DNA from: Candidatus Micrarchaeota archaeon
GTDB taxonomy: Archaea > Iainarchaeota > Iainarchaeia > JAADDC01
Direction of reading: 5' to 3'
NCBI GenBank assembly: GCA_027011045.1
Contig: JALVAT010000013.1
Span: 20,364-84,363, forward strand
DNA length: 64,000 bases
Shown here: one piece after another, positions 2,137 to 59,620 of the stretch
Layout: each line of letters begins with the position of its first letter
Position numbering within the stretch: position 1 is the first letter of the stretch
The notes under the pieces: generated by a model
What the model was told of the DNA's origin: nothing
Databases searched by the model: none
What the model saw: the letters and a program-made list of their open reading frames with translations, nothing else
Position numbers and translations under genes: made by a program

Positions 2137-2946
2137 ATGCGTGGCCAGTCCGGGATAGGCACCATTATCGTATTCATCGCCATGATCCTCGCCGCCGTTG
2201 TGGTAGCCATTGTCATTCTCCAGATAACAGATTCGCTCCGCGGACAGGCCATGCTCACGAACAGACAGGCCCAACAGACCATGAGCGCGCGCTACGACAT
2301 AATAGGCGTCTCCGCGGTAGCATACAAGGACGCAAACACTGGGGACTATAAAGTCTATTACCTAATACTCCGCGTCCGTCCCGGACTGGGCGCGCGCAGC
2401 CTGGACCTCAAGAAAACGTACCTCACGTATAACGGTCCACAGGTAACGATTCCGGGCGTCAAGTACGAACCGATTACGGAGGTCCTCAAGAACAATGCCA
2501 CGTACATCGCAGCGGCGGCGGACTTGGGAAACACAGACGTGAACGACATACTCTCCAAGATCACGGGGGCGTGCAGTGCGTCCATGTATAACATAATGAC
2601 CGCCCTGGGGACGTATAACTACATCACTGTGGTCCCTTACATCGCGCCAGCCAGAAAATCGGACGTTGCGTACGCCCCAGGTACAGTGACAGCCGCAACG
2701 GTTGTGGCGAACAGAGATCCCGCGCACTTCACTGCAATCTGGGAGGAGTGCGCGGGAAAGGACGACCTCGGAAGCGTTTCTGATGGTCAAACCGTGTACA
2801 TAATATACCCCCTCCCCAAGCCCGTGGGCTCGAGCACATACATAACCATAAGCCTGGAAACGGCAGACGGCTGGAGCGCCCCCATGACGCTCCGCATCCC
2901 CGCGGGCCTGGATCAGGGGTACGTCACGATCTACCCCGCAACCTAA
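2137..2946 (+). CDS. flaB: Archaellin (FlaB) with class III signal peptide
   Basis: N-terminus MRGQSGIGTIIVFIAMILAAVVVA matches the archaellin prepilin motif (basic residue-G-x-GIGTLIVFIAM). Confidence 0.8.
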   Translation: MRGQSGIGTIIVFIAMILAAVVVAIVILQITDSLRGQAMLTNRQAQQTMSARYDIIGVSAVAYKDANTGDYKVYYLILRVRPGLGARSLDLKKTYLTYNGPQVTIPGVKYEPITEVLKNNATYIAAAADLGNTDVNDILSKITGACSASMYNIMTALGTYNYITVVPYIAPARKSDVAYAPGTVTAATVVANRDPAHFTAIWEECAGKDDLGSVSDGQTVYIIYPLPKPVGSSTYITISLETADGWSAPMTLRIPAGLDQGYVTIYPAT

Positions 2947-2950
2947 GGAG

Positions 2951-3673
2951 GTGTATGCTGTGTTCGAAAACCTGTTTGGAGGCGGCGGAAAGCAGCAGAA
3001 TAAAAGCCCAAAGAAGCCAGCTGCTGGAATAAAGCCTGCTATTCAGATCGGCGTTGGAGCTCCGACAGTTGGTAGTCCCGCTACAAACGCCGGCGGTCAG
3101 GATCTCGCCGCAGAGCTCGAGAACGTCAAGCAGGACGTTGAGAAGCTCAAGGACTCCGTCAACGCGATTAGGTCCTCACTTAAGAACCTGAACGAAAAAA
3201 TGGACAAACTCGAAAAGCACATTGCAGAGCTCGCATCCATCTACGAGCTTGTTACAAACCAGACAAACCCATTCCTTGACGAAGACGAGAGAAAAGCCGC
3301 TGCAAAAAAGGTTGGGACCATTCAGACAGTCCCAGCGGCAGCGCCAGCTGCCCCCGTAGCACCAAAGGAAGAGGAGCCTGAGGTCGTGCTGCCCAGCGTG
3401 GATCTCACGAATCCAAAGGTAATTCAGACGATCCTTGACTGGATGCAGTTCATCGTGGAACGTGTGGGCCACGCCGGCGTCGATGACGTGCTCCAGTACT
3501 ACGTGGACATCCACTGGATCTCCCAGGAAGTAGCGGAGATCCTCAAGCGCTACGCAGACGGAATAAGGGTTGAAATTGAGCCAGAGGTGGAGGAACCCGT
3601 GCAGCTCGATCCCGAGGACCACATGAAGAGCCTGGACTACATTATGCAGATCAAGGAGTTCCAGGGTCAGTGA
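2951..3673 (+). CDS. FlaD/E-domain archaellum accessory protein (FlaC/D/E family); the true start may be the GTG about 9 nt downstream of a GGAGG
   Basis: Soluble coiled-coil N-terminus plus C-terminal block ...LQYYVDIHWISQEVAEIL... resembling the FlaD/E domain signature (YY..IGWIS.EV). Confidence 0.6.
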   Translation: MYAVFENLFGGGGKQQNKSPKKPAAGIKPAIQIGVGAPTVGSPATNAGGQDLAAELENVKQDVEKLKDSVNAIRSSLKNLNEKMDKLEKHIAELASIYELVTNQTNPFLDEDERKAAAKKVGTIQTVPAAAPAAPVAPKEEEPEVVLPSVDLTNPKVIQTILDWMQFIVERVGHAGVDDVLQYYVDIHWISQEVAEILKRYADGIRVEIEPEVEEPVQLDPEDHMKSLDYIMQIKEFQGQ

Positions 3674-5105: not shown

Positions 5106-5506
5106 TGTTTTCCACAGGCAACAGGTTTATAGCGTATTCTTAGCAAAATAATTCTGCGGCCTGGCTGCGCCCGGGGAGCGCGAAGCAATGAACCGGTGTC
5201 ACGAAGGCCGCATACAACCCAAACAATAGAAAGATTCACAAGAGAAGACTGTAACAAGATAATAACCGGCTGCAAGTCCGTCTGGCAGACAATAGGAATA
5301 ATGTTAAAAGAGGGTGCCGTGCAATCAGCGCCTTGCTCTTCTTCTCCTGCGCTTAAGGCGGCGCATCTTCTTCTTTCTCCACTTCCAGCGCTGCATTGCG
5401 TGGGGCTTCTTGAAACGCGATGTGTCCTTCTTTCGTATGCCCAAGTGAGCACCTCCTGAGGTGTGAACGCTATGCTAAGGGTCAAAGGAGTTAATAAAGG
5501 TGTGGG

Positions 5507-5530
5507 TATGCTCCGGCCAGCATTTGAAGG
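5507..5530 (-). repeat. Degenerate duplicate of the tRNA-Glu 3' end (T-loop plus acceptor 3' strand)
   Basis: tatgctccggcc (12/12) and atttgaa (7/7) match the 3' part of the tRNA-Glu gene about 100 bp away. Confidence 0.5.
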
Positions 5531-5629
5531 CCAAATTCTCTGGCCGGGCGAGTGTGGGTGGGGTCTACCGACCCCACGCCCGGGCGCGGCGACAGAGACG
5601 ATATCACCGCGCCAGCAACGCAGCTGTTA

Positions 5630-5704
5630 TGCTCCGGCCGGGATTTGAACCCGGGTCTCGGGCTCGAAAGGCCCGAATGCTTGACCGGGCTACACCACCG
5701 GAGC
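5630..5704 (-). tRNA. tRNA-Glu(TTC): tRNA-Glu (anticodon TTC)
   Basis: Manual fold: acceptor GCUCCGG/CCGGAGC, T-arm CCGGG-UUCAAAU-CCCGG, anticodon stem CGGGC/GCCCG, loop CUUUCGA. Confidence 0.85.
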
Positions 5705-5830
5705 AGCCACCATCCCGGCTGGCGTGATGCTAACTGCCCGTCTTCGACAGGCAATTATGCGTTGGTTGCACGCGGGGTCAAGCACCGCCTGCGGGTGCGA
5801 AACCCGCACCCAACATCCGCCGTAGAATGC
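5705..5830 (-). repeat. tRNA-flanking structured element, copy C (shortest family member)
   Basis: Shares ccatcccgg, gatgctaactg, a hairpin, caattatgc and ggttgc blocks with the elements at 33776 and 46118; lies directly 5' of tRNA-Glu. Confidence 0.55.
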
Positions 5831-5856
5831 TTGGGAGGAATGCTTTAAATTCATGA

Positions 5857-5916
5857 GGATCAGCACTGCTATCTCTCATCATCGCTCCGCTCAGACGAAA
5901 CCTCCCTCATCACCCA
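5857..5916 (-). ncRNA. C/D-box sRNA (2'-O-methylation guide)
   Basis: Minus strand reads GUGAUGA, 12-nt guide, CUGA, spacer, GAUGAUGA, 12-nt guide, CUGA; A/T-rich TATA-like stretch about 25 nt upstream. Confidence 0.7.
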
Positions 5917-5943
5917 TAAAAAGAGATATCTCACGTTTTTATT

Positions 5944-6336
5944 ATGGCCACGACAGTCAAACTCAAGGACGTGGGACTTCTTCTGCTCGGAACGGGTGTG
6001 CTCATAGTGGCCCTGGTCGTCGCGCACTGGTACTTCTTCCAGGTACTCCCTGCATCGGAGGAATCGGCAAGGGTCAACACGTGGTGCTTTGTAGAGGACA
6101 ACCGCGCCTTTGTACACATAAGCACGGGGAACAAAATACGGGACGTTGTCATTGAGATTGGTAAAGCGCGCTGCGAGTACAATGTAATGTATCCAGGCAC
6201 AACCAACGTATGTGAAGCAAACGTATGGGGAACCACGGTGTACAGAGTAAAATACGAGGTGCACGGCAAAGCTGTGGAAGAATCGGACGTGTGCAGGTAC
6301 GGTAGCTTTGTTAAACCCATTCCGATAAGAGGATAA
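5944..6336 (+). CDS. Hypothetical small membrane-anchored protein (N-terminal TM, Cys-containing ectodomain)
   Basis: ORF with hydrophobic N-terminus LLLLGTGVLIVALVVAHWYFF; TATA-like cataaaaaga about 25 nt upstream of the ATG. Confidence 0.4.
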   Translation: MATTVKLKDVGLLLLGTGVLIVALVVAHWYFFQVLPASEESARVNTWCFVEDNRAFVHISTGNKIRDVVIEIGKARCEYNVMYPGTTNVCEANVWGTTVYRVKYEVHGKAVEESDVCRYGSFVKPIPIRG

Positions 6337-17705: not shown

Positions 17706-17814
17706 CCGGGGGTAGCTCAACCTGGTAGAGCGGCCGGCTGTAGTCTGGCTTGGGCCCAACCTGCAACAACAGGCAGAAACCGGCAGGTTGGGGGTTCAAA
17801 TCCCTCCCCCCGGA
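17706..17814 (+). tRNA. tRNA-Tyr(GTA): tRNA-Tyr (anticodon GTA) with 35-nt intron at the canonical 37/38 position (17744..17778)
   Basis: Acceptor CCGGGGG/CCCCCGG, anticodon stem GCCGG/CCGGC interrupted by a 35-nt insert after CUGUAG. Confidence 0.8.
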
Positions 17815-17845
17815 CTCCTTTTCAAAACATTGTGGCGAATTCTTA

Positions 17846-17901
17846 TGCGATGATGACGAGGTATTACCCTGACCGGTGATGAAAAAAGCCTCAGCTGAGC
17901 A
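17846..17901 (+). ncRNA. C/D-box sRNA
   Basis: GAUGAUGA, 12-nt guide, CUGA, spacer ccg, GUGAUGA, 12-nt guide, CUGA, directly downstream of tRNA-Tyr. Confidence 0.65.
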
Positions 17902-33700: not shown

Positions 33701-33775
33701 GTGGGGCCGCCCGGATTTGAACCGGGGACCTTCGCCGCGTGAAGGCGACGTCATGCCAGGCTAGACCACGGCCCC
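33701..33775 (-). tRNA. tRNA-Val(CAC): tRNA-Val (anticodon CAC)
   Basis: Acceptor GGGGCCG/CGGCCCC, anticodon stem UCGCC/GGCGA, loop UUCACGC. Confidence 0.85.
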
Positions 33776-33905
33776 AACCGCCATCCCGGTTGACATCGCA
33801 AGCTCCGCTTGCGTGCACGCGAACGGAGTTCGCGATGCGTGAGTGTGCATGGGGCTTGCAGCCCCATACTCAGCCGGTTGTGTGGTCGGTTGCTTGCAAC
33901 CGGCC
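33776..33905 (-). repeat. tRNA-flanking structured element, copy A (first 69 nt identical to copy B)
   Basis: ccaaccgccatcccggttgacatcgcaagctccgcttgcgtgcacgcgaacggagttcgcgatgcgtga is identical at 46118; contains a ~17-bp near-perfect hairpin centred on the palindrome gcgtgcacgc. Confidence 0.6.
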
Positions 33906-33998
33906 TCGCACAGCGCCGGCCAATGTGGCGGCCGCTCTACAGACCAGAGTGATTTATGGGGAGAGGAATTAAAAAACTACGAGTCTGGAAAGAACGTG

Positions 33999-46085: not shown

Positions 46086-46097
46086 AACGTGTGGAAA

Positions 46098-46112
46098 AAG
46101 CCGCGGGCGGGA
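46098..46112 (-). repeat. Duplicate of the last 15 nt of tRNA-Thr (acceptor 3' strand plus T-stem), followed on the minus strand by TTTTT
   Basis: agccgcgggcgggat is identical to 46322..46336 of the intact tRNA-Thr gene 208 bp away. Confidence 0.55.
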
Positions 46113-46117
46113 TCCAA

Positions 46118-46262
46118 ACCAACCGCCATCCCGGTTGACATCGCAAGCTCCGCTTGCGTGCACGCGAACGGAGTTCGCGATGCGTGACGCTAACTGGGGA
46201 TCTGCGATCCCCAATTATGCACCGGACGTGTAGTCGGTTGCTTGCAAAAGGTGTGCGCGGTG
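46118..46262 (-). repeat. tRNA-flanking structured element, copy B
   Basis: First 69 nt identical to copy A; distal part shares gctaactg, a hairpin, caattatgc and ggttgc with copy C. Confidence 0.6.
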
Positions 46263-46322
46263 GCCAGAAACTGCGATAGTAAAGCTCGGCAGCAGTAAGA
46301 ACAGGCCATAATTAAGAAGAAG

Positions 46323-46396
46323 AGCCGCGGGCGGGATTTGAACCCGCGACCTGCCGCTTACAAGGCGGCCGCTCTACCGGACTGAGCTACCGCGGC
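46323..46396 (-). tRNA. tRNA-Thr(TGT): tRNA-Thr (anticodon TGT)
   Basis: Acceptor GCCGCGG/CCGCGGC, anticodon stem GCCGC/GCGGC, loop CUUGUAA. Confidence 0.85.
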
Positions 46397-56144: not shown

Positions 56145-56173
56145 TGCACCCCTTCTACCAAACGCAAGCAAGA

Positions 56174-56252
56174 TCAGCCAAGGCTGAAGTCATCATCGGT
56201 CAGACGCGCCTTACTTCATCACACCTCAGCATTGGACTCATTCATCATCCCG
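56174..56252 (-). ncRNA. C/D-box sRNA with an abutting extra C-guide-D half-unit (56174..56197)
   Basis: Minus strand: GGAUGAUGA, 12 nt, CUGA, ggu, GUGAUGA, 12 nt, CUGA, cc, GAUGAUGA, 12 nt, CUGA; AAATTTATTT TATA box about 22 nt upstream. Confidence 0.65.
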
Positions 56253-56297
56253 TAGAACCGTAACATGGTAAGAAATAAATTTTGTAATAGAAGTTTG

Positions 56298-56354
56298 AGG
56301 TCAGGGGGTAACAGATTCATCACCCGTCAGGGGAACGACCGACTCATCATCCCA
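56298..56354 (-). ncRNA. C/D-box sRNA, paralogue of 38203..38260 (same D-guide cucuguuacccc)
   Basis: Minus strand: GGAUGAUGA, 13 nt, CUGA, cgggu, GUGAUGA, ucuguuaccccc, CUGA; ATATTTTTT TATA-like about 25 nt upstream. Confidence 0.7.

Positions 56355-56576: not shown

Positions 56577-59620
<3,044 letters not shown>

Follow-up and report, generated by a model that had tools for sequence, protein, structure and literature searches.

The partial copies of tRNA gene ends described here are probably duplication scars of a non-autonomous, tRNA-targeting hairpin insertion element, family E. The window, that is, the whole stretch of 64,000 nucleotides that was analysed, belongs to a metagenome contig of 126 kb (ERZ27262679) on which archaellum genes and a reverse gyrase are encoded, and the organism is therefore taken to be a hyperthermophilic archaeon. 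The features of the window and of related loci (L numbers) are collected in Table 1.

Table 1. Positions of tRNA-end copies, E elements and related inserts in the window (unless a locus is named).
Feature	Position	Strand	Basis or match
tRNA-Glu(UUC), intact	5630..5704	-	Rfam, 61.5 bits
Partial tRNA-Glu 3' copy: U54 to A73 plus trailer UA	5507..5528	-	20/22 identical
Module hp3, 3' terminal hairpin CCGGCCAGAGAAUUUGGCC	5529..5547	-	regular-expression match
Module beta: hairpin GUGGGGUC-GGUA-GACCCCAC, then CCACACUCGC	5548..5576	-	85% conserved with L005
5' part of tRNA-Glu trailer insert: two hairpins, diverged alpha-type module	5577..5627	-	
Second element copy, in tRNA-Glu 5' leader	5706..5821	-	module matches, alignment to relatives
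Element abutting 5' end of tRNA-Val(CAC) (33701-33775)	33776..33934	-	75.4 bits
Element in trailer of tRNA-Thr(UGU) (46323-46396)	46120..46321	-	
Partial tRNA-Thr 3' copy: 15 nt exact plus decayed T-loop positions	46099..46119	-	
3' copies from U54	L012 Leu; L042 Gly; L047 Gly; L005 Glu; window Glu		22/22; 23/23; 22/23; 23/24; 20/22, respectively
5' copies	tRNA(CAU) L038/L043/L045; tRNA-Thr(CGU) L047; tRNA-Thr(UGU) L052; tRNA-Arg L010		
Second insert type, sites	L012 9986-10185; L037 7761-7823; L044 4092-4154; L010 2224-2290		

The original prediction of a tRNA-Glu 3'-end copy with T-stem mutations was borne out by direct comparison. Positions 5507-5528 match 5628-5649, i.e., the last 20 nt of tRNA-Glu and two trailer bases, at 20 of 22 positions; on the plus strand, the 12-mer TATGCTCCGGCC is identical at 5507-5518 and 5628-5639, and ATTTGAA is present at both 5522-5528 and 5643-5649. 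In the RNA sense, the gene (bounded by ARAGORN at 5629-5705, minus strand) ends in ...GGGUUCAAAUCCCGGCCGGAGCA followed by UA, with no encoded CCA, and the copy, read from 5528 to 5507, is UUCAAAUGCUGGCCGGAGCAUA. The comparison is thus UUCAAAU-GCUGG-CCGGAGCA-UA in the copy versus UUCAAAU-CCCGG-CCGGAGCA-UA in the gene: the copy comprises the T-loop, the 3' strands of the T-stem and the acceptor, the discriminator and both trailer bases, and the two mismatches fall in the T-stem 3' strand. The gap between the gene and its downstream copy is 98 nt. The chance expectation of the 12-mer with at most one mismatch is 0.39 in the whole 64-kb window, and the 22-nt alignment has a blastn expect value of 0.098 against the whole window, so that a same-strand match within the 450 nt just downstream of tRNA-Glu is far less likely. 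Neither ARAGORN nor Rfam recognised a tRNA or pseudo-tRNA in this copy or in that of tRNA-Thr; the tRNA-Glu copy lacks the T-stem 5' strand and all upstream parts, and it is not a split or permuted tRNA half gene. As part of the insertion-element reading, positions 5507-5528 are likely to be a decaying direct repeat of the tRNA-Glu 3' end.

A 39-codon ORF (5325-5444, minus strand), with a TTG start after GGAGGTG and the C-terminal end MQRWKWRKKKMRRLKRRRRRARR, resembles ribosomal protein eL41 with an N-terminal extension. Its DNA is approximately 93% conserved in L004 and L005 (estimated from the alignment), the partial tRNA-Glu copy is followed, 8 nt downstream, by the TTTATTAA box of this ORF, and Pfam gave no match for it or for two neighbouring ORFs.

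The spacer between tRNA-Glu and the copy (5529-5627) consists of a series of stable hairpins that belong to the modular repeat family E. In its hp3 module, at 5529-5547, CCGGCCAG pairs with CUGGCCGG of the partial tRNA-Glu copy, and hp3 also terminates elements at tRNA-Gly (L042, L047) and tRNA-Thr (L052). The idea that E spreads only between tRNAs with similar ends, to which hp3 at tRNA-Gly and tRNA-Glu had pointed, was weakened by this tRNA-Thr case. The segment at 5577-5627 cannot be aligned with L005, where the counterpart is an alpha module by its score with a covariance model (R1). In the leader of tRNA-Glu, a gamma-like hairpin, CAGCC-GGGAUGG-UGGCUG (5706-5724), abuts tRNA position +1 and is accompanied by a beta' module (5729-5760) and further hairpins.

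Two more tRNAs of the window carry related inserts. The tRNA-Val element contains alpha (33876-33934), beta (33839-33866), a 44-nt palindrome (33794-33837) and gamma (33775-33792), and the tRNA-Thr trailer contains a decayed alpha, beta' (46189-46220), the palindrome (46139-46182) and gamma (46120-46137); in a self-comparison of the window, 46119-46187 and 33774-33842 were identical at 69 of 69 positions. The parallel geometry that had been claimed for tRNA-Thr is real, as 46099-46113 equals 46323-46337 (15/15) about 208 nt downstream of the gene; a T5 run follows this copy directly (minus strand, 46095-46099, base 46099 being common to both). Within the window, the matches of gamma, beta, beta', palindrome and hp3 were confined to the Glu, Val and Thr loci, and the ORF lists showed no plausible gene, integrase or other mobilising gene inside or beside the inserts. 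A 14-mer at 33927-33940, considered as a tRNA-Thr-like fragment upstream of tRNA-Val, is better read as the start of the alpha module.

Across the family, module alpha is composed of hairpin 1, ACGCUG..ACGCGAG, hairpin 2 and ACACAA; the other components are a long GGGG...CCCC hairpin in the form of beta (...UGAGUAUGGGGCU-GCA-AGCCCCAUGCACACUCACG) or beta' (GCAUAAU-hairpin-GUUAGCGUCACG), the optional 44-nt palindrome and a terminal hairpin, which is either gamma (CAACCG-GGAUGG-CGGUUG) or hp3 (CCGGCCAAAGAACUUGGCC). CGUC precedes many, not all, of the gamma and hp1 hairpins, and the modules combine into tandem and mosaic arrays in which module content and copy number vary freely. Both alpha hairpins covary: among 13 alpha modules, their 16 pairs are 90.6% paired and seven are changed on both sides, while none of 500 shuffles matched the observed covariation score, one of 500 matched the number of double-change pairs, and sliding of the partner strands abolished the signal. 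In six complete elements, the 5' end compared with the reverse-complemented 3' end was no better than shuffles, i.e., there were no terminal inverted repeats. Searches with Rfam 15 at gathering and permissive thresholds (the window, positions 5300-6000 and a rich array in L039) returned only tRNAs and a sub-threshold C/D box match, the remaining overlaps with the region being weak and at chance level. A suggestion from MAFFT that the element carries a decayed tRNA-Glu tail was rejected, as the stretch concerned is the gamma hairpin.

The near-perfect palindrome, CATCGCGAACTCCGTTCGCGTGCACGCAAGCGGAGCTTGCGATG, occupies the same position in the two window copies, is also present in L036 and L044, is missing from otherwise similar copies and is not flanked by a duplication; it may have been inserted as a unit of its own. 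The hairpin loops of the elements (5548-5576, 5729-5760, 46189-46220 and related loci) include many GNA triloops (GCA, GAA, GGA) closed by C-G or U-A, and other loops are UUCG tetraloops. GNA triloops and UUCG tetraloops are unusually stable in DNA and RNA, respectively.

Syntenic loci, found with the neighbouring HD-domain protein as a probe, belong to uncultured vent archaea labelled Ca. Iainarchaeum, Micrarchaeota and Methanobacteriota. The comparison of the tRNA-Glu locus that had been proposed gave the same copy in L005 (23/24), a different insert in L004 and none in L009 and L010. L005 has the same layout, and over the distal 86 nt, which extend beyond the copy into flanking DNA, it shares 85% identity with the window. 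The insert in L004 is a different family member, homologous to the tRNA-Val copy and enclosed in a perfect 36-nt repeat that comprises 18 nt of the tRNA and 18 nt beyond the gene.

A scan of metagenomes with a 20-base signature yielded 18 stretches, 11 of which are family members with a G + C content of 0.52-0.58; these come from four JGI vent samples and all lie beside a tRNA, on the tRNA strand. Their hosts are tRNAs for Arg, Pro, Leu (two isoacceptors), Lys, Gly and Ser and a tRNA with a CAU anticodon, and the elements are often in tandem (2-4 units), so that the tRNA and its promoter-like box can be up to approximately 370 nt apart. Model R1, built from alpha modules, gave 21 tRNA-strand matches (E <= 0.0015) across 371 kb, all of them in tRNA flanks, and no match in 11 Thermoprotei control loci (L013-L023); weaker opposite-strand matches overlap the same palindromic places. 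In the related genomes and vent metagenomes, E was found nowhere but in tRNA transcription units (leaders, trailers, spacers between tRNAs and one probable intron), every well-scoring copy is on the tRNA strand, and inserts homologous to each other are found at more than 10 different tRNAs.

Several observations from these loci stand beside the main pattern. In L038, a weak alpha-like match (17 bits, 1172-1237) lies in an apparent intron of approximately 125 nt in the anticodon loop of tRNA(CAU); the related L045 seems to have a short intron at tRNA(CAU), but its contig ends there. A second insert type, with the motif ACGGGGUNAUAGGGGCGG(G)AGCCCC, was found at tRNA-Leu (three cases) and at tRNA-Arg (L010), where its orientation is opposite to the tRNA, and the bare hairpin of this type also follows tRNA-Gly in L012. 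A viral link through the tRNA-Leu/Arg hairpin motif, which matched 10 viral contigs, was discarded, since the matches are simple GGGGCGGAGCCCC palindromes in unrelated low-GC contexts and are taken to be convergent. L044 encodes an archaeal SRP RNA (2857-3133, 146 bits) about 700 nt from tRNA-Asn and 1 kb from a tRNA-Leu with a long element array.

The original prediction of a recurrent process at tRNA ends, with a scan for partial 3'-end matches downstream of tRNA genes as its check, is supported by a clear enrichment. Of 36 tRNAs from this lineage whose downstream flank was long enough, 10 are followed by a copy of their own 3' end (score >= 13), whereas the three types of control were empty (wrong side, 0/35; reverse complement, 0/36; shuffled flanks, 0/720); one of the 10 positives, tRNA-Ala of L047, lies at a contig end and is possibly an assembly artefact. 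Most 3' copies start at U54, the first T-loop base, and end 2-4 nt past the discriminator, some start only at position 58-61, and the repeat lengths vary (14, 15, 17, 22-24 and 36 nt). Mirror-image 5' copies run from approximately 3 nt upstream of the gene to position 11-16 in the D-loop and are followed by E and then by the intact tRNA. The flank bases included in the repeats vary from locus to locus and even from one related genome to another (UCC in L042, CUC in L047), whereas at any one site they are identical in both repeat copies. Old copies keep their last 11-15 nt intact, and their T-loop and T-stem positions are changed, differently in each copy. At the contig end of L047 (1933-2024), the 5' part of tRNA-Thr(CGU) is fused, at the T-loop, with the 3' end and downstream flank of the tRNA-Ala that lies 300 nt upstream; either this is an artefact of assembly at a repeat, or the T-loops of two tRNAs have really recombined.

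Filled and empty sites were found among close relatives. The tRNA-Glu leader contains an element of 110 nt in the window and is empty in L004, L005, L008 and L009, in which a conserved C/D box small RNA and a TTTAAA box run straight to tRNA-Glu. Similarly, L042 and L047 have a filled tRNA-Gly(CCC) site and L039 an empty one. At the syntenic tRNA-Thr, the 3' element of the window ends in gamma and the 5' side is empty, while in L052 the 3' element ends in hp3 and a 5' element with a 14-nt 5' repeat is present. On the 3' side of tRNA-Glu, L009 and L010 have neither insert nor copy but have different downstream genes, and no strictly orthologous empty site for this insertion was found among the relatives compared. 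Nor was a strict empty site found for tRNA-Thr: a search for orthologs of the neighbouring gene returned just two relatives, the first lacking the tRNA and the second carrying inserts on either side of it. Just upstream of the tRNA-Glu promoter, the window has a candidate C/D box small RNA (5858-5917, minus strand) with sub-threshold Rfam matches to Pyrococcus sR families (best 28 bits; gathering score 42), the 3' part of which is conserved in L004, L005, L008 and L009.

We propose that a short, non-coding, hairpin-rich element was probably inserted at the T-loop of tRNA-Glu and left a decaying direct repeat. E units, single or in tandem and on the strand of the tRNA, occupy only those parts of a tRNA transcription unit that are disposable. 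After an insertion in the T-loop or D-loop, the gene would work only if the segment from the insertion point to the gene end were duplicated, and this requirement would lead to fixed outcomes, either intact tRNA-E-3' copy or 5' copy-E-intact tRNA. The distal copy would be the displaced original gene end, and the functional gene end would be the one adjoining the element, because, as judged by eye, the copy at tRNA-Thr retains the T5 run and that at tRNA-Glu retains the AT-rich TATA-like box belonging to the next gene. E is presumably transcribed within the pre-tRNA, as it abuts position +1 and TATA-like boxes (by eye) lie upstream of it, and it may be mobilised in trans, since it has no ORF and no terminal inverted repeats. 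We infer the mobility of E from its distribution only. Candidate routes would include a duplicative insertion in which the staggered cut is long, recombination of a small circle that bears one copy of the repeat, and template switching; the variable length (14-36 nt) and start (54 or 58-61) of the repeats argue against a fixed-ruler transposase. Integration at tRNA ends, as originally suggested, is partly supported, in the form of recurrent insertion and not of classical virus or plasmid integration and excision, as non-coding hairpin modules of approximately 60-210 nt recur at many tRNAs. Likewise, the process placed at tRNA 3' ends is real, but it extends to 5' leaders (some with 5'-end duplications), to inter-tRNA sites and to a probable intron.

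A different view, which we regard as unlikely, is that E together with the tRNA copy forms a host-selected structured leader or trailer of the pre-tRNA. Such an RNA might guide or delay RNase P or tRNase Z, stop exonucleases or transcription, or yield a stable small RNA, and the tRNA-end copy might be kept for closing a terminal stem or for mimicking a tRNA end. That all well-scoring copies are on the tRNA strand would suit this view, and such a strict sense orientation could reflect an RNA-level role; the abutment of E on position +1, which implies transcription, the T5 run after the tRNA-Thr copy and the covariation of the hairpins point the same way. The window and L005 both conserve the terminal stem CCGGCCAR...YUGGCCGG, of which the tRNA-Glu copy is part, and the two changed T-stem bases together with an opposite A-to-G change extend it from 6 to 8 bp, the terminal stem being lengthened by paired changes in L047 as well; such changes hint that the copy is under selection and not decaying freely. 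In addition, the segment from beta through hp3 to the copy is 85% conserved between the window and L005 versus approximately 70% for the adjacent promoter spacer (the latter by eye), and this difference, like the intact last 11-15 nt of old copies, counts against the insertion-scar reading. However, presence or absence at the same tRNA differs between close relatives, so that E is dispensable, and its module content and copy number are free to vary. The T-loop positions of the copies are not conserved, and the different decay of T-loop and T-stem in each copy argues against tRNA 3'-half mimics with a role in processing or termination, the other original suggestion, whereas the conserved terminal stem and the T5 run at tRNA-Thr leave room for it. 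No Rfam family matched. Folding energies and G-U counts are equal for sense and antisense, with no G-U excess on the sense strand, and in the absence of strand asymmetry an RNA role is neither proven nor excluded by folding.

A more far-reaching reading, which we hold to be rather improbable, is that E is a selfish element of a new kind that lives on tRNA transcription units and moves through or with the pre-tRNA, or else a leader and trailer system recruited by the host for tRNA maturation in a hyperthermophile. Movement through the pre-tRNA might involve the endonuclease and ligase of tRNA splicing, break repair templated by RNA, or recombination at the universally conserved sequences of the D-loop and T-loop. 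Such a route would explain the constant sense orientation, the sites in leaders, trailers, spacers and an intron, and the junctions at 11-16 and 54.

A classical att scar is more doubtful still. Here a virus, plasmid or island would have used a tyrosine or SSV-type integrase to enter tRNA-Glu in its 3' part and would later have been deleted to approximately 100 nt between attL and attR. T-loop starts fit the T-loop sublocation of att sites that Williams is said to have described in 2002. An intact tRNA with a partial 3' copy is the textbook integrase signature (PMC9897764), and partial tRNA genes flank integrated elements of 9-23 kb in Thermococcaceae (PMC9897764). Indeed, integrase att duplications (Reiter 1989, Williams 2002, PMC9897764) resemble those of E in surrounding the insert with an intact tRNA and a partial 3' direct repeat that begins within a tRNA loop and ends slightly beyond the gene. 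A precedent for the 5' side is tRNA-Thr of Caldiarchaeum subterraneum, in which a 1.8-kb recombinase-encoding element lies between a 5' tRNA fragment and the gene (PMC3293823). In contrast to att systems, the inserts of E measure 60-210 nt rather than 9-23 kb, and no integrase or other ORF is found inside or beside them; in the 98-nt tRNA-Glu insert (5529-5627), the ORF lists contain no kb-scale cargo, integrase or recombinase gene. The E inserts are homologous to one another, with covarying hairpins, at more than 10 tRNAs, unlike random deletion remnants, and they also produce 5'-end duplications and occur in leaders without duplication and between clustered tRNAs. The E signature had no match in 2.9 million viral contigs (IMG/VR).

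Chance similarity, an assembly artefact or a split or permuted tRNA half gene is very improbable, even though the window is a metagenome assembly and the tRNA-Thr/Ala case at the L047 contig end looks chimeric, because the same layout occurs in independent NCBI, ENA and JGI assemblies, the shuffled, wrong-side and reverse-complement controls are empty, and the copy has no upstream tRNA parts and no tRNA call.

If E is an insertion element, as we consider probable, its traits overlap with those of several known systems. Like the bacterial REP/BIME, RPE and Correia sequences (PMC3733652), E comprises short, non-coding, multi-copy hairpins that form mosaics and tandems in transcribed intergenic DNA. 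The CGUC found before many, not all, of its gamma and hp1 hairpins recalls CGTC-tagged REPs. Unlike REP/BIME, however, E is archaeal, restricted to tRNA units, locked in orientation to the tRNA and associated with tRNA-end duplications of 14-36 nt, and it is not known to be accompanied by a RAYT or any other transposase; a general extragenic distribution was not found, all model and module matches being in tRNA units. E shares with MITEs a small size, a non-autonomous nature, multiple copies and presence/absence polymorphism, but it has no terminal inverted repeats, and the repeats that flank it are long and vary in length, where those of MITEs are short and fixed. Casposons, i.e., Cas1-dependent transposons at tRNA 3' ends, reportedly show target-site duplication, fixed orientation and tandem accumulation, and would thus be like E in tRNA 3'-end duplication, orientation and tandem build-up; the casposon traits missing from E are a size of 8-20 kb, Cas1 and PolB, terminal inverted repeats and 14-15-bp duplications. 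The Caldiarchaeum model and archaeal tRNA intron transposition have in common with E that related sequences occur in disposable parts of tRNA genes, and a 5' tRNA fragment upstream of an intact gene is common to the Caldiarchaeum model and E, whereas the tRNA-Glu element is no intron but is located outside the mature tRNA, and a single possible copy in an intron (L038) was seen in the family. We found no description of small hairpin repeats specific to archaeal tRNA genes in the literature, of which our coverage is incomplete, and an earlier description is possible.

Other RNA genes were also noted in the window. Directly after an intron-containing tRNA (17706-17814), positions 17840-17900 (plus strand) read GATGATGA ... 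CTGA ... GTGATGA ... CTGA and, as judged by eye, may be another C/D box small RNA; several similar box pairs occur at approximately 56160-56350, between tRNA-Ser and 23S rRNA. The large-subunit rRNA gene is located at 56607-59598 (plus strand), with tRNA-Ser(UGA) approximately 460 nt upstream, and as the 64-kb window contains no small-subunit rRNA, the rRNA genes appear to be unlinked.

On the insertion-element reading, partial tRNA copies, which are usually landmarks of integrated viruses and islands, would here mark tiny non-coding hairpin elements that colonise tRNA genes, and a tRNA-end duplication could thus arise without a kb-scale mobile element. This would bear on the annotation of tRNA fragments and pseudo-tRNAs, and the loci may provide natural intermediates for models of tRNA gene disruption, splitting and intron gain. 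E would give some tRNAs leaders of up to approximately 370 nt, and its distribution raises the question of which enzyme might recognise the D-loop and T-loop regions of tRNA genes or transcripts.
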